Virus genome (UHGV): UHGV-0149956
Length of the DNA: 64,000 nt
From: a virus
Direction: 5' to 3' (one strand)
The notes beneath the pieces were generated by a model. The model saw only the letters and a program-made list of their open reading frames with translations. It was not told the DNA's origin and did no database searches. This document shows positions 3,373 through 63,214 of this stretch, piece after piece. Numbering within the stretch: the stretch's first letter is position 1; each line of letters starts with the position of its first letter. A program made the translations under genes and the position numbers.

Positions 3373-5390
3373 GCCCTTACGATGTAATTAAATGCAACGT
3401 TGCGAGGGCGAGTTTCTGTACCTACATTTCCACTAATTTCACCATAACGTTTAACACTACGAGAGCTAATAGCTCGTAGTGAGGAAGGCACCTTATGACC
3501 GGGTTCGTCCGTTTTAACTATTCCCCCGTCACCGTATGTAGCTAGTATTCCTGGATTTACGCCTTCCCGTGCACTTCCTGCGGCGAGTCCGTCCCCTGTC
3601 CATAATTCCATATAGTGTGCATGGTCCAAAATTGTGTGTGGCTGCCAATTAAGCAAAGCGCGGCCAGCATCCACCCCGCGCCCATCATCCCAGCCACGGA
3701 TAAATTCACCGCGTAAATCAGGTAATTTTAACGTTGGGTAAACCTTTGCCAGATTTGGGTACTTTTCAGAAGAAAATGCTGCACCATTGCATTTCAGCCA
3801 CCCCGTTGGCGGTGTGGCTGAGGGCCATGGAATAGGTACACCAACGGGCAGCGCCGAGCCTTCCCCTAAACCAAGGTAATCAAGAACGCTCTGAATACTG
3901 GTCTTACCAAGAATGGCGCGTCCAACACTTGTCAATGCAGTTAACGCGGCACGATCAACACCTGTGAAATAAGGGAGTTTATCTGCTGCTGTAGCTAGTG
4001 CCGCTAGAGCAGTGAGCGTAGCGTCTGCCGCTTGCTTTCCATTAGCCAAATCATATGCAGCCTTGACAGCTTTCGGTGTGGCGGCCAGCACTTCAGACGT
4101 GCTGTTAGTGGCACTACTGAGCTGAGTGATGCCTTTCGCTGTCAATGAAGCTGTTGGCACACCAGTGATCTGATTCCAGGGATGTGTATGACTGGATGGT
4201 GCCTTTCCGGCTGCTAGATCGTATGCAGCTTTAACCGCTTTTGGAGTTGCAGCTAATGTTTCAGAAGTGCTGTTGGTGTCGCTACTGAGCTGAACTATCC
4301 CTTTTTGTGTCGTGGTTGCATCCTGGGCTGTATACTTCCCGTTAGCCAAATCATATGCAGCCTTGACAGCTTTCGGTGTGGCGGCCAGCACTTCGGACGT
4401 ACTGTTAGTGGCACTACTGAGCTGAGTGATGCCTTTCGCTGTCAATGAAGCTGTTGGCACACCAGTGATCTGATTCCAGGGATGTGTATGACTGGATGGT
4501 GCCTTTCCGGCTGCTAGATCGTATGCAGCTTTAACCGCTTTTGGAGTTGCAGCTAATGTTTCAGAAGTGCTGTTGGTGTCGCTACTGAGCTGAACTATCC
4601 CTTTTTGTGTCGTGGTTGCATCCTGGGCTGTATACTTCCCGTTAGCCAAATCATATGCAGCCTTGACAGCTTTCGGTGTGGCGGCCAGCACTTCGGACGT
4701 ACTGTTAGTGGCACTACTGAGCTGAACTAATCCCTTTTGCGTTGTGCTTGCATCCTGCGCCGTATATTTGCTTTTCGCCAGATCGTAGGCTTTTTTAACT
4801 GCCAGCGAACTCGCAGCAACATCACTTCTGGTACTGGTTACAGAGTCTGAAATATCAATGCCGATCGTGCGGTTGATACGCTCGGATGTATCAATCATCT
4901 CTTGAGTAATGGTAGATACGCCAGCAGGGATATTCACCGTACAAACCAGCAGTTCCCCATCACCTAACTGATATGAATCGGTATAGGTTCTGGCAACAAA
5001 TTCAGCTGCATGAATATGTGACGCGGTATTCACCTGATAGGTATCTTCTCCAAGAAGGTATCTTCCCTTCAGCACAATTGCATATTTCTTGCCTGCGTTA
5101 AGTGCAAGAGAGATATCCTTACGATGCTGAATAGTTACCTGGTAGAATTCACCAATATCCACTGACGCCGCGCCAGCGGTTTTATCTCCATCCACTGAGG
5201 TGATTAACAGGTTCATTCCACCGCCAGGCTTAGGCAAGAAACCAGCATAAAATCCCGGGTCAACAATTCCCCTGAATTTTCGGTTTAGAGCGGCTGACAG
5301 ATATGGTTCGTGGTATTGCACATCAGCCACCAGAGCCAACGACTCGGGTGATGGGTAAGTAACCGATGTAACAACTGTAACGTCATTCAT
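3366..5390 (-). CDS. S: Tail fibre protein (S-like) with ~30-aa repeats and expressed C-terminal tip
   Basis: ATG at 5390 with AAGGA 5-8 nt upstream; internal repeats TAQDA-TTQKG-VQLSS-TNSTSE-LAATPKAVKAAYDLA; C-terminal 150 aa homologous to the downstream cassettes. Confidence 0.8.
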   Translation of the reverse strand: MNDVTVVTSVTYPSPESLALVADVQYHEPYLSAALNRKFRGIVDPGFYAGFLPKPGGGMNLLITSVDGDKTAGAASVDIGEFYQVTIQHRKDISLALNAGKKYAIVLKGRYLLGEDTYQVNTASHIHAAEFVARTYTDSYQLGDGELLVCTVNIPAGVSTITQEMIDTSERINRTIGIDISDSVTSTRSDVAASSLAVKKAYDLAKSKYTAQDASTTQKGLVQLSSATNSTSEVLAATPKAVKAAYDLANGKYTAQDATTTQKGIVQLSSDTNSTSETLAATPKAVKAAYDLAAGKAPSSHTHPWNQITGVPTASLTAKGITQLSSATNSTSEVLAATPKAVKAAYDLANGKYTAQDATTTQKGIVQLSSDTNSTSETLAATPKAVKAAYDLAAGKAPSSHTHPWNQITGVPTASLTAKGITQLSSATNSTSEVLAATPKAVKAAYDLANGKQAADATLTALAALATAADKLPYFTGVDRAALTALTSVGRAILGKTSIQSVLDYLGLGEGSALPVGVPIPWPSATPPTGWLKCNGAAFSSEKYPNLAKVYPTLKLPDLRGEFIRGWDDGRGVDAGRALLNWQPHTILDHAHYMELWTGDGLAAGSAREGVNPGILATYGDGGIVKTDEPGHKVPSSLRAISSRSVKRYGEISGNVGTETRPRNVAFNYIVRAA
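3861..3886 (-). other. Crossover-like site 0 (Din/invertase-family-like 26-mer) at constant/variable junction of S
   Basis: TTCCCCTAAACC-AA-GGTAATCAAGAA; resembles hix/gix/cix sites as recalled (12-bp half sites flanking a 2-bp AA core). Confidence 0.55.
4021..4725. repeat. Near-perfect 300-bp tandem repeat (2.3 copies) inside the fibre gene
   Basis: Sequence lines starting at 4321 and 4621 are identical, and lines 4141/4441, 4201/4501, 4261/4561 are identical; period exactly 300 bp. Confidence 0.9.
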
Positions 5391-58714: not shown

Positions 58715-59634
58715 CCAGAATCACTGAAGAGCGTATATCAGAGATTATTTCCCGTATCGAAATGTATGGTCACGGTGCTGGATATACGGCAGATGAAGTA
58801 TTGGCACTTGCCCAAATGGCTTTGGCGGCTTGCAAAGATGATAAAAAAATGAAGCTTATCGACTTGTTAGTGAAGGAGCTGCCTAAGTGCGGCGGGTGGC
58901 CTGATGGAATGAGTTATTGTTACCTACCCAGTGTCAATTTAATGGCACCATGCGCGACTTTTGCTTTTGGCTCAGACCACAAAAAAGACACTTTCTTTGG
59001 GCGCAATTTTTGTTGTGAGATTGAGCTTCCAATTGGTGACCTTGATAGCGATGAATACCAGTCAGTTGTCACTCGCGAACAATACGAATCAGCTCTCATA
59101 GCGTCGCAGAAAGTCGAGTTCAATGGTGATGAACCTGAAAGTAAGACTTACAGGTTGGATTTTGGGCAATGGCTGGAACAGCAACGCGGAAAGATCGATG
59201 TGGACTGTGGTTGTGTGTCCACTGAAACATTCATGCACTGGCTGCGGGTAGCTTACGAGGCTGGCAACTATCCGGATATTCCGGATAGTTCGGTGTCAGC
59301 GCCAGGAAAGGGCGTCACCGGTGGACGTATCCGCATTAAGCCGCATGTTTATCGCGAACTGGTTAACCGTCTCCACGATACAGCGATCAAGTGTGCTGGC
59401 ACCCAGCAATTACGAGAAAGAATTAGCCGTGTTTTGGGCGACGTTATTACGCCAGATCATCATAAACAAGCCGAGAAAAGTGGCTTGGAAAGGTGTCACC
59501 TTGAGGCGGCATTAAACATTAAGCCGGGGCATACGCTTGGCATTATTGATGCACTATTGGTTCATAAGATGGCCAGGGCTTTATTGCCGCTGGTGGCTGA
59601 AAAGCATGAGGCGGACCATGCCAACGAAAGCTGA
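58696..59634 (+). CDS. Hypothetical protein
   Basis: 312-aa ORF. Confidence 0.3.
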   Translation: MAQKEMTRITEERISEIISRIEMYGHGAGYTADEVLALAQMALAACKDDKKMKLIDLLVKELPKCGGWPDGMSYCYLPSVNLMAPCATFAFGSDHKKDTFFGRNFCCEIELPIGDLDSDEYQSVVTREQYESALIASQKVEFNGDEPESKTYRLDFGQWLEQQRGKIDVDCGCVSTETFMHWLRVAYEAGNYPDIPDSSVSAPGKGVTGGRIRIKPHVYRELVNRLHDTAIKCAGTQQLRERISRVLGDVITPDHHKQAEKSGLERCHLEAALNIKPGHTLGIIDALLVHKMARALLPLVAEKHEADHANES

Positions 59635-59902
59635 GTTACAGGCGCGCATAGAGATTCTTGAAAAAGAGAATGCGAGTCTAAAAGGAATGCTGGCGCGGGC
59701 GGAAAGGGAATTATCAGGCAAATTATTGCCAGAAGAGCTGCCACCAGCAGATATACCTGATCGAGTGTCCTGGTGGATGAAGTATTTCCGTGCACCGTGG
59801 GAGGCGTTTTGGTGCTACGACCATCGCAGATGGTGTGATGAGCTTGATAGCAGTTTCCCCTATTTTGCGGAAGGGAACTCTTGCCCTGAATGTAGGAGTT
59901 AA
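59618..59902 (+). CDS. Coiled-coil zinc-ribbon protein (tandem paralog 1)
   Basis: C-terminus PWEAFWCYDHRRWCDELDSSFPYFAEGNSCPECRS. Confidence 0.4.
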   Translation: MPTKAELQARIEILEKENASLKGMLARAERELSGKLLPEELPPADIPDRVSWWMKYFRAPWEAFWCYDHRRWCDELDSSFPYFAEGNSCPECRS

Positions 59903-60207
59903 TGATGACCGGCGAGCTTTATTTTAAAATGGCACGGGAGCGGCGTGTGCATCTGGATCGGATATTTCATCTCCAGAAGAGAGTAGAAGAACTGGAACGT
60001 CGTCTGAACTGTTATCCTGTTGATATGGTGTCTGCAATACCGCCGATTCCAATAGAAATGCAGATCCGCCTATGGATGGAAGAATATGGAATGCCGTGGG
60101 AGATATTTTTCTGCTTCGACCATAAACAGTGGGTAGATGAGCTGGATAATAGTTTCCCATATTTCACAGAGAACACATGCCCAGTATGCAGGAAGAACGG
60201 AATATGA
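59902..60207 (+). CDS. Coiled-coil zinc-ribbon protein (tandem paralog 2)
   Basis: C-terminus PWEIFFCFDHKQWVDELDNSFPYFTENTCPVCRK. Confidence 0.4.
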   Translation: MMTGELYFKMARERRVHLDRIFHLQKRVEELERRLNCYPVDMVSAIPPIPIEMQIRLWMEEYGMPWEIFFCFDHKQWVDELDNSFPYFTENTCPVCRKNGI

Positions 60208-60728
60208 CAAAATTTGGAAAGCTGGAAGCTCATTTGCTAACTCGTAACTACCGCCATGATATACACCCATATAGACAGTGGATCGATGAAAGCGAAGGAG
60301 TAGTTACATTCCCTCTATACAGGTTTGATGGGATGTTGGCTGGGTATCAGACATATAGACCAGGTGCTCATAAGCAGCATAGCAATCCGAAGATGGCCCG
60401 GTATTTCACGCGATCACACGGCAGACAGTTACTTTGGGGAACCTATCTTCCTTTAAAAGATGGCCCAATATGGATAACTGAGTCTATTTTTAAGAGCGCA
60501 GCTGTACACAACGCGGGCGGCAATTCGTGGGCGCTGTTAGGTTCGACTTTCTCCGCAGGATTACGCCGTCAACTTGCGATGCTGCCGTATGACTTTCGTG
60601 TAATAGGTGACAATGATGCGGCTGGTGAATTACTTGTGAAGTCTTTCGGAAAAGGTTTTGTGGCCCCGGATCTTGACGAGCTACAACCACATGAAGTGTC
60701 TCATTTGATTTTTAGCCATAGCCAATAA
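60204..60728 (+). CDS. Hypothetical protein
   Basis: Start at MTKFGKLE overlapping upstream stop (ATGA). Confidence 0.3.
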   Translation: MTKFGKLEAHLLTRNYRHDIHPYRQWIDESEGVVTFPLYRFDGMLAGYQTYRPGAHKQHSNPKMARYFTRSHGRQLLWGTYLPLKDGPIWITESIFKSAAVHNAGGNSWALLGSTFSAGLRRQLAMLPYDFRVIGDNDAAGELLVKSFGKGFVAPDLDELQPHEVSHLIFSHSQ

Positions 60729-60742
60729 GCATCTCTCCCCTT

Positions 60743-60775
60743 TGAGGCCACAACTAGTGGCCTTAAACAATTTGT
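60743..60775 (+). terminator. Rho-independent terminator
   Basis: GGCCAC-aacta-GTGGCC hairpin followed by T-rich run. Confidence 0.55.
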
Positions 60776-60850
60776 TTTCTACGTTTTCTTATTTGAGAAA
60801 ATCACGTTGTTGGCAGCTCATAGGCTCGTTGTTATACATGGCTGTATAGA

Positions 60851-61207
60851 TTATGAGCGTAAATTATTAGCGGATTTTAAGCCATATTCACCGTTGTAGA
60901 AATTACTCATGTTCCATTCATTGGGAAGCTCTTTTCTGTCCAATGTATAGTGGCGCACGATATAACGATCTTCATCTTCTTCGATGGACAGGCGGACATA
61001 GCCAATGTGGATCACCGATACGGGCGGTGTTCGTATTGCATAGATGTCGCGGAGATATACCGGTAGCTCGACAAATGCATCAGGTGCATCTGTGATGCTC
61101 GTTTTTTCACAGTATTCATATAACGCATCGTTGATATCGTTAAGAGATTCATGATCGTATATTTCCAGGTAATTACCGCGATCGCGATGGTACTCGATTT
61201 TAGCCAT
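60851..61207 (-). CDS. Hypothetical protein
   Basis: 118-aa ORF adjacent to the 194-aa gene. Confidence 0.35.
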   Translation of the reverse strand: MAKIEYHRDRGNYLEIYDHESLNDINDALYEYCEKTSITDAPDAFVELPVYLRDIYAIRTPPVSVIHIGYVRLSIEEDEDRYIVRHYTLDRKELPNEWNMSNFYNGEYGLKSANNLRS

Positions 61208-61792
61208 TCAAAATCCCCTGTTATCGTTTTGCATTTCTCTAATCCGGTTCAGAACTACTTCATGCTGGGCTTGGATAGCGGCTTTTTCGTTTTCAAGTCG
61301 GGCAATAGACATCTCTAATTCTTTGCTGTACCAGGCGAGTTGGGCCAGGTTCATCCGGTTGTGGTCGAGAGTTGGAGACACTTCGACGCGATCCCTTTCT
61401 TCCTGCTTTAATGAGAAGAGATTCATCTCATCCCTAGAGGAAAATTCAGCAACAATTTCTTGTTGATGATCCGGTCGCTGCGGCATCCTCGCCAGTATAA
61501 ATGGCGGTTCTTTTGAAAACATGAATGTCGGTTCAGACCGTGTTTTTACCCAGCTTGCCTGCTGTCTTTCGGCAAGTTCACAGGCTTCATCATAGTTATC
61601 TGCCAAACAAAGCACGGATGGACGGTCCCACGCCCCACCATTCAGACAATAAACTACAATTTTCCCGTCAGGTTGTGTAACCCCATATGGATGGTCCCAC
61701 CAGGCGTCCAGCTGAGCTTTAGAGCGTTTCTCGTTAGGAGTGCAGTCAAAATTTTTGGGCAATACAGGAGCGAGAGGAATGCGATTAGGCAT
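61208..61792 (-). CDS. Hypothetical protein, divergent from humD (possibly SOS-regulated)
   Basis: 194-aa ORF; C-terminal coiled-coil; shares the control region containing a LexA box. Confidence 0.35.
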   Translation of the reverse strand: MPNRIPLAPVLPKNFDCTPNEKRSKAQLDAWWDHPYGVTQPDGKIVVYCLNGGAWDRPSVLCLADNYDEACELAERQQASWVKTRSEPTFMFSKEPPFILARMPQRPDHQQEIVAEFSSRDEMNLFSLKQEERDRVEVSPTLDHNRMNLAQLAWYSKELEMSIARLENEKAAIQAQHEVVLNRIREMQNDNRGF

Positions 61793-61927
61793 AGCTAATT
61801 CCTTATTAACTGATTGGCAACGAGGTTACGCTGATCCGTTGGTGATGAATAGTAGCAAAGAGCACAAAATCATCAGCGGTGGTTGATGTACGTAACGCGT
61901 TTGCACCAAAGGTGTCTCTTTAATGTA

Positions 61928-61947
61928 TACTGTATAAATGAACAGTA
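61928..61947. promoter_or_regulatory. LexA (SOS) box
   Basis: TACTGTATAAATGAACAGTA matches CTGT-N8-ACAG, 20 nt upstream of humD ATG. Confidence 0.85.
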
Positions 61948-61966
61948 TTATTGAGGTGAAAACGCT

Positions 61967-62356
61967 ATGGGCTTCCCTTCTCCTGCGGCGGATTATGTTG
62001 AAAGCCGAATTTCTCTTGATCAGCAACTAATCAGGCATCCATCAGCAACCTACTTCATGCGGGCAGCTGATAGCCATCACCGTGAGGGAATATTGCAGGG
62101 TGCTTTGCTGGTGGTTGATTCCTCGCTTACTCCGGTTGATGGTTCTCTGCTTGTGTGCGCTATGGAGGGTGAATATCGCATAAAGAGATACAGGAAGTAT
62201 CCGCGCCAGCACCTGGAGGATTTAAGCACCGGGAAGAAAGAGGCGTTACCAGTAGATGACGATGGATACACGGGCAGTAATGCTGTTTTTGGTGTGATCA
62301 CTCATGTCATCAATGATGCCCGAAGTGGGGAATTTGATGATTGTCCGGTTATTTAA
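61967..62356 (+). CDS. humD: UmuD'-like protein (HumD)
   Basis: 129 aa, LexA/UmuD C-terminal peptidase-fold family without the N-terminal cleavage arm; SOS box upstream. Confidence 0.75.
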   Translation: MGFPSPAADYVESRISLDQQLIRHPSATYFMRAADSHHREGILQGALLVVDSSLTPVDGSLLVCAMEGEYRIKRYRKYPRQHLEDLSTGKKEALPVDDDGYTGSNAVFGVITHVINDARSGEFDDCPVI

Positions 62357-62391
62357 GCTGCAAAGTGCTGGTGCTTTATGCCTGTGAAGTT

Positions 62392-62420
62392 TATAATTGT
62401 GTACACATAACGAGTACACG
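62392..62420 (+). promoter_or_regulatory. phd-doc promoter -10 and palindromic operator
   Basis: TATAAT at 62392-62397 followed by GTGTACAC-ataacga-GTACAC repeats. Confidence 0.55.
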
Positions 62421-62428
62421 AGGTGTTT

Positions 62429-62650
62429 ATGCAATCCATTAACTTCCGTACCGCGCGTGGCAACCTTTCTGAAGTGCTCAACAATGTTGAAGCCGGGGAA
62501 GAGGTTGAAATCACCCGCAGAGGCCGTGAGCCAGCAGTAATTGTCAGCAAGGCTACTTTCGAAGCCTACAAAAAAGCGGCGCTGGATGCTGAATTTGCAT
62601 CCCTGTTTGACACCCTGGACTCCACCAACAAGGAACTGGTTAACCGATAA
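62429..62650 (+). CDS. phd: Antitoxin Phd
   Basis: [39 protein letters not shown], Phd/YefM fold; AGGTG SD. Confidence 0.9.
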
Positions 62651-63030
62651 TGAGGCATATATCACCGGAAGAACTTATTGCGCTTCATGATGCGAATATA
62701 AGCCGCTACGGCGGCCTGCCGGGAATGTCAGATCCGGGTAGGGCAGAGGCCATTATCGGGAGAGTTCAGGCCAGAGTTGCCTACGAAGAGATCACCGACC
62801 TTTTCGAAGTCTCCGCCACCTACCTGGTGGCTACAGCGAGAGGGCATATATTCAATGATGCCAATAAGCGTACCGCGCTAAACAGTGCGCTGCTATTTCT
62901 ACGCCGTAACGGGGTGCAGGTATTTGATTCACCTGAACTGGCAGACCTTACTGTAGGCGCTGCGACTGGCGAGATATCTGTATCTTCTGTCGCCGACACG
63001 TTACGTAGATTGTATGGTTCTGCGGAGTAG
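62650..63030 (+). CDS. doc: Toxin Doc (Fic-fold kinase)
   Basis: 126 aa with Fic-like motif [12 protein letters not shown]; start overlaps phd stop. Confidence 0.9.
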
Positions 63031-63214
63031 ATTAATGGCACGCAAATACAACAAATTGTCCCGTGAAGCGTTAAAGATGCTTCTTGATGGCGTGAGTCGC
63101 CGCAAGGTAAAGCAATACCTGGTTGGTAAGCAAATTGGAGTCAGGACCGCTATTGCTGTGTTATGCCGTCAGGAAATGGTTGTGCTTAAACAGAGAATGC
63201 CGGGCAGCAGATAA
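63014..63214 (+). CDS. Small hypothetical protein
   Basis: 66-aa ORF overlapping doc 3' end. Confidence 0.3.

Follow-up and report, generated by a model that had tools for sequence, protein, structure and literature searches.

The window, a 64,000-nt stretch of viral DNA, carries a gene for a UmuD'-like protein (humD) and a divergently oriented gene of 194 codons (lxr), and an SOS box lies between them. The locus raises the question of whether host LexA controls one or both of these genes, as the initial annotation had proposed, and whether such control is independent of the repressor of the element itself. The question has been addressed by analysing the box, its conservation at related loci, the surrounding promoter features and the proteins encoded on either side.

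Gene layout and the HumD protein

Megablast of positions 60800-63100 revealed a DNA identity of 98.3-99.0% to Salmonella phage SJ46, phage P7 and phage P1. Both C1 operators and collinear DNA of high identity are found in the window, and its sequence thereby identifies it as a P1/P7/SJ46-type punavirus, a P1-type phage-plasmid. The features that are relevant to the present analysis are as follows.

15436, 17098, 32053, 35575/35586, 45719, 49343/49392 and 51484: matches to the C1-operator consensus
60851..61207, minus strand: upf93.6 homologue, 118 aa (phrog_5797), directly abutting the lxr stop codon
61208..61792, minus strand: lxr of P1 (upf94.2 of P7), 194 aa (phrog_6164)
61793-61966: intergenic region between lxr and humD, 174 bp
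61901..61906, plus strand: inferred -35 hexamer TTGCAC, weak, with a 19-nt spacer to the -10 hexamer
61926..61931, plus strand: putative -10 hexamer (TATACT) for humD transcription, which overlaps the left half of the box
61928..61947: predicted SOS box (LexA operator) TACTGTATAAATGAACAGTA, from its sequence, its matrix score and the P1/P7 annotation
61953..61959, plus strand: ribosome-binding site GAGGTGA of humD, read from the sequence
61967..62356, plus strand: humD, 129 aa, encoding a pre-processed UmuD' analogue, umuC not adjacent
62429..63030, plus strand: phd-doc addiction module, following humD; a separate promoter is annotated for it in P1

The left arm of the window is of the P7/SJ46 type, with a full 194-aa Lxr and upf93.6, whereas in P1 lxr is followed by the convergent gene hot. 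The upf93.6 homologue is probably the operon partner of lxr in P7-type elements. Further to the left, two tandem paralogous ORFs on the plus strand (59537-59902 and 59902-60207) have in common a C-terminal motif, W.xF.C.DH..W.DELD.SFPYF....CP.CR, which is zinc-ribbon-like in appearance. They are followed by an ORF of 183 aa (60177-60728, plus strand) that matches only the mid-part of phage DNA primase profiles (positions 143-333 of 435 in phrog_849). A search of positions 60700-62700 against Rfam gave zero matches at an E-value of ≤1. On the right, the stretch that separates humD from phd (62357-62428) gave no terminator-like site, in contrast to N15 and phiKO2, in which a terminator is annotated directly after the umuD'-like gene; SOS-induced transcription of humD might therefore read through into the phd-doc addiction operon.

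The description of the gene at 61967..62356 as UmuD'-like is borne out by its match to the NCBIfam equivalog NF051876, 'HumD family', at 220.2 bits (cut-off 120), which covers residues 1-129 of 129. HumD also matches Peptidase_S24 and phrog_811 (profile positions 21-140), and it is 100% identical to the HumD proteins of P7 and SJ46. Residue 2 of HumD aligns with residue 1 of UmuD' (1umu) and with residue 25 (Gly25) of full-length UmuD (8gmt_B). HumD lacks the N-terminal 24 residues of UmuD and, in the alignment to UmuD, keeps Ser and Lys at the S24 dyad. There is no cognate umuC in the humD operon, phd and doc being the next genes downstream. The equivalog match, the start at the equivalent of UmuD Gly25 and the lack of a following umuC thus identify HumD as a pre-processed analogue of UmuD'.

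The SOS box and the predicted promoter of humD

The SOS box reported upstream of humD is present on the plus strand at 61928-61947 as TACTGTATAAATGAACAGTA. The distance from the end of the box to the humD ATG (61967) is 19 nt, one less than the 20 nt noted earlier, and that from the start of the box to the divergent lxr ATG is 135 nt. The intergenic region is indeed common to humD and the divergent 194-aa gene, its length being 174 bp (61793-61966) and not 175. The SOS-box consensus is a 20-bp palindrome, TACTGT-(AT)4-ACAGTA, with the core CTGT-N8-ACAG; TACTGTATAAATGAACAGTA agrees with it at 17 of 20 positions, with three mismatches, a perfect CTGT/ACAG core and an AT-rich spacer. It is the sole 20-mer in the 64 kb with ≤3 mismatches to the consensus, and 0 of 100 dinucleotide-preserving shuffles of the window yielded any such match. 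The bare core is found twice in the 64 kb as compared to 0.76 expected, which is not significant alone; the significance is therefore carried by the full 20-mer. On a symmetrised LexA weight matrix, which was made with 28 E. coli operators and gives approximate scores, TACTGTATAAATGAACAGTA scores 23.9 bits and the runner-up site in the window 10.7. Among the training operators the median is 20.6 bits, which the box exceeds, and the minimum is 12.6.

The box is also bracketed by an inverted repeat of 11 nt (61897-61907 and 61955-61965, 10/11 complementary), which may be due to chance. In transcripts coming from further upstream, its arms would bring the ribosome-binding site of humD into base-pairing with the -35 region. 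It was rejected as a candidate element for sequestering the ribosome-binding site, the left arm being different in D6-type sequences.

The SOS box at 61928-61947 is already known. The GenBank record of P1 (AF234172) annotates the identical 20-mer at 87545-87564 as protein_bind, 'LexA binding site in the regulatory region of lxr and humD', and that of P7 (AF503408) annotates it at 94404-94423 as a LexA site with 'regulation of humD expression'. In both phages the 20-mer has the same place relative to humD and lxr/upf94.2, in surrounding DNA that is 98.3-99% identical. The P1 record further names the divergent gene, of 190 aa in that phage, lxr for 'LexA regulated function', and notes that HumD 'functionally complements E. 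coli UmuD''. Full-text literature searches for experimental work on the humD LexA site returned secondary mentions alone, the primary papers being outside their scope. The primary papers are reportedly those of McLenigan et al. 1999 (J Bacteriol 181:7005) and Lobocka et al. 2004 (J Bacteriol 186:7032; P1 genome). In the secondary mentions, humD is stated to be LexA-regulated (PMC9603915), lxr and humD are given as non-essential in a CRISPRi screen (PMC10695390), and a LexA site is mentioned at the coi promoter.

Conservation of the box was assessed in a set of 80 close IMG/VR loci, the encoded HumD proteins of which are 95-100% identical. The box stands before the humD ATG in 80/80 of them, at a distance of 18-19 nt and with scores of 19.0-27.8 bits. 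None of 75 control regions reached 12.6 bits, the maximum being -0.7. Upstream of humD, lxr is present in 37 of the 80 loci; the remaining 43 are devoid of lxr, yet keep the box. The 80 loci comprise 13 box variants and 26 distinct 60-nt control-region sequences, over which the entropy is 0.00 for the CTGT/ACAG core, 0.47 for the spacer, 0.44 for the upstream flank and 0.39 for the downstream flank. The 6 nt preceding the box (aatgta) display zero variation in the 26 sequences. An alignment of eight elements likewise has invariant half-sites, TACTGT...ACAGTAT, and a variable spacer. The DNA on the left is unrelated in D6, RCS47, 813R1, Cyrano and CMS-2020a, all without lxr, and the box is kept in each; megablast homology with D6, RCS47 and 813R1 begins ~9 nt to the left of the box.

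The association of box and gene extends to unrelated temperate phages. Their standalone MGFPSPA... gene is accompanied by a box in 9/9 (N15, phiKO2, HK140, HK639, an Enterobacter phage, APC_JM3.2, an Aeromonas phage, Hafnia yong1 and BTP1), and the distance to the start is 14-21 nt in seven of the nine. The proteins of N15 (gp26), phiKO2 (gp23), HK639, HK140 and BTP1 have the MGFPSPA... N-terminus in common with HumD and are 60-70% identical; most of their genes carry the SOS box 14-21 nt before the start, as at humD, and in the phiKO2 record a lexA site is annotated. The neighbourhoods of these genes are unlike that of humD: the genes lie at a tail-fibre/integrase or sop junction, and a divergent dinI is often present. 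When genomic homologues with a standalone UmuD'-like gene were considered, a box was recorded in 32 of 36. It is proximal in 19, and in 13 it precedes a short leading ORF, the arrangement seen in HK140, at 255-285 nt upstream. The four homologues without a box include two from Bacteroidota, in which an E. coli-type SOS motif is not expected, and one from Sodalis with half a box. A GAGG/GGAGG-like motif occurs in the humD homologues at the place equivalent to that of the ribosome-binding site. As judged from these comparisons, the SOS box belongs integrally to a portable humD cassette, in which it is under selection and which occurs in many unrelated temperate phages.

The best plus-strand sigma-70 match in the region is TTGCAC-19-TATACT, with a score of 9.55, at about the 80th percentile of random 240-nt windows. 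Its -35 hexamer agrees with the consensus at 3/6 positions, and a stricter sigma-70 promoter scan of the intergenic region found none. In the P1 group, an invariant TATACT starts 2 nt before the box, with a -35-like hexamer 17-19 nt upstream (TTCAAA at 17 nt in Cyrano, TTCACA at 18 nt in D6, and TTGCAC at 19 nt in the window, P1 and CMS-2020a). Most homologues have TTGATC, 17-18 nt and then the box. Over 20 sequences follow the plan of a -35 hexamer, a 17-19-nt spacer and the left half-site. The E. coli umuDC operon is similar to humD in its near-consensus SOS box, the 19 nt from box end to ATG, the -10 hexamer (predicted in the case of humD) on the left half-site and a product of the UmuD family. 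It differs in its -35 hexamer, TTGATC with a 17-nt spacer to TACTGT, as compared to the weaker TTGCAC and 19-nt spacer of humD. Furthermore, the UmuD encoded together with UmuC in the umuDC operon is full-length and has to undergo RecA-mediated cleavage, whereas humD encodes the truncated form already, without umuC.

The P1 record carries a 'predicted sigma 70 promoter PhumD' at AF234172 87080-87106, which corresponds to window ~61463-61489, inside lxr and ~440 nt upstream of the box. If humD were transcribed from it, LexA on the box would act as a roadblock to elongation and not on initiation. This is highly improbable, as the sequence of PhumD (TTGATG ... CATCCT) is a weak prediction and is absent from every humD locus without lxr, where the box nevertheless keeps its distance of 18-19 nt to the ATG. 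Control of initiation, as in umuDC, is also favoured by the -35-like hexamer, which is conserved at 17-19 nt upstream of the -10 on the left half-site. Since its sequence is absent from many humD loci that keep the box, PhumD is probably not the main promoter, and its placement in the P1 record is probably a mis-assignment. That the box might be a chance palindrome or a decayed relic with no regulatory role is scarcely credible. The frequency of the bare core would allow it, but the lack of the full 20-mer from all the shuffles, the invariance of the core while spacer and flanks drift, and the fixed distance of the box from the start codon across unrelated phages all argue against it.

The 20-bp palindrome is thus very probably a canonical E. 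coli-type LexA operator within a portable unit that consists of promoter, SOS box, ribosome-binding site and humD, and the comparison of loci speaks strongly for control of humD by LexA. From these features we infer LexA binding, the exact promoter and the induction of humD. As long as a lysogen is undamaged, humD would be kept off by a LexA dimer bound to the box, where it would mask both the -10 hexamer (TATACT, 61926-61931) and the start region of the weak sigma-70 promoter. Upon DNA damage, RecA-stimulated self-cleavage of LexA would free the promoter. HumD would then be made already in the active UmuD' form, RecA-mediated processing being unneeded, and may pair with the SOS-induced UmuC of the host for translesion synthesis.

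The divergent gene lxr

Lxr of the window is 98% identical to P0001 over 194 aa, and the lxr DNA is 98-99% identical to that of P7 and SJ46. The match to phrog_6164 runs end to end, and the protein is orthologous to P1 Lxr and P7 Upf94.2. The N-terminal domain (residues 1 to ~125) is very conserved, with invariant WWDxP, CLNGGxWDR and QRPD motifs, and displays 46-60% identity between enterobacterial phage-plasmids and plasmids of Pseudomonas, Burkholderia, Xanthomonas and Bradyrhizobium; the enterobacterial versions have an added long C-terminal helix. By these alignments, the N-terminal domain defines a family that is strongly conserved and is carried by mobile elements throughout the Proteobacteria. 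Lxr gave no match in Pfam, NCBIfam or PADLOC and no significant match among PDB sequences, the weak hits (E 0.05-0.5) looking like chance. The AlphaFold (AF2) model is confident (pLDDT 86), and a Foldseek search with it of PDB and BFVD returned nothing at E ≤0.001. The NCBI name for the protein is 'DNA-binding protein' (putative). Genes of the family are located directly upstream of a resolvase gene in Pseudomonas plasmids and adjoin a HEPN/Toprim gene in Klebsiella phage-plasmids.

The initial annotation had placed both divergent genes under LexA control. For humD this is in agreement with the presence of the box in all 80 close loci and with its invariant core; for lxr the evidence is its adjacency to the box. 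A shared bidirectional operator, through which one LexA box represses both lxr and humD, is possible but unlikely. It is favoured by the wording of the P1 annotation, 'in the regulatory region of lxr and humD', from which the name lxr derives, and by related arrangements: the dinI-like gp22 and umuD-like gp23 of phiKO2 form a genuine divergent pair with a common annotated lexA site, and dinI of HK140 adjoins the humD operon of that phage with a box in common. These two pairs, unlike lxr/humD, have short intergenic regions and a central box. The uvrA-ssb genes of E. coli are divergent SOS promoters with one box between them, and the layout here is alike in having one box between two divergent genes; it differs in that the box is strongly asymmetric (19 nt from humD and 135 nt from the lxr ATG) and no convincing promoter of the far gene overlaps it. 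Two weak promoter-like matches on the minus strand do overlap the box (ATAATA-18-TACATT and TTCACC-18-TATACA), but their scores of 5.7-6.1 are below the median of 7.4 for random 240-nt windows of the genome, and they imply an lxr leader of at least 130 nt.

The loci that have only one of the two genes also speak against a shared operator. The 43 of 80 humD loci that carry the box without lxr indicate that the box does not depend on lxr. Conversely, genes of the Lxr family that are away from humD have zero upstream sites of ≥10 bits in four independent contexts, namely Klebsiella phage-plasmids (inside a module of RecA, gp32 and Pol III genes), a Salmonella island, Pseudomonas plasmids and a Salmonella P1-like element, the last of which encodes a full-length Lxr, 67% identical, with no box at lxr. 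In an alignment of the regions upstream of lxr, close relatives are nearly identical and distant ones are not alignable. The -22 sequences of LPhot and LPpac, compared by eye, have no counterpart upstream of lxr that would suggest a P1 late-promoter element.

Control of lxr by LexA, a positional reading from adjacency, is on balance unlikely, and lxr is most probably a neighbour gained by mosaic recombination and not a co-regulated partner. We therefore lean, by a modest preference, to regarding the name lxr as a misnomer: the SOS box would belong only to the humD cassette, which recombines into various phage backbones just to the left of the box, and Lxr would be an unrelated, conserved family of mobile elements. 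If Lxr is unrelated to the LexA cassette, its conservation would suggest a conserved host target.

Another SOS box, TACTGTGTTTTCATACAGTA, with a score of 23.2 bits, was observed in the Salmonella P1-like element L026 at 5332-5351 (also in L027). It directly precedes a gene of 92 aa (L026 5328..5050, minus strand), presumably another LexA-linked cargo gene in the family.

Apparent independence from C1 and biological meaning

The proposal that the humD circuit is independent of the element's own repressor holds at the level of sequence. The window contains nine matches to the C1-operator consensus as compared to 0.32 expected by chance. None was found in the humD/lxr control region, the nearest C1-operator-like site being that at 51484, ~10 kb away. 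As no C1 operator lies within 10 kb, the humD circuit appears to be independent of the phage repressor, and C1 would play no part in it. Among the nine matches there are two closely spaced or overlapping pairs, which fits the immunity circuitry of the P1 family.

An SOS-inducible UmuD' analogue is textbook biology for the P1 family. What is added here is that the box is integral to the humD cassette, that PhumD of the P1 record is probably misplaced, and that LexA control of lxr rests on adjacency. The points on the placement of PhumD and the control of lxr matter for reading the P1 annotation and for the use of these elements as vectors. The site would explain how phage-plasmids of the P1 family couple one cargo gene, humD, to the SOS response of the host, bypassing the C1 immunity circuit, humD being a ready-made UmuD' that can boost translesion synthesis and mutagenesis in the host.
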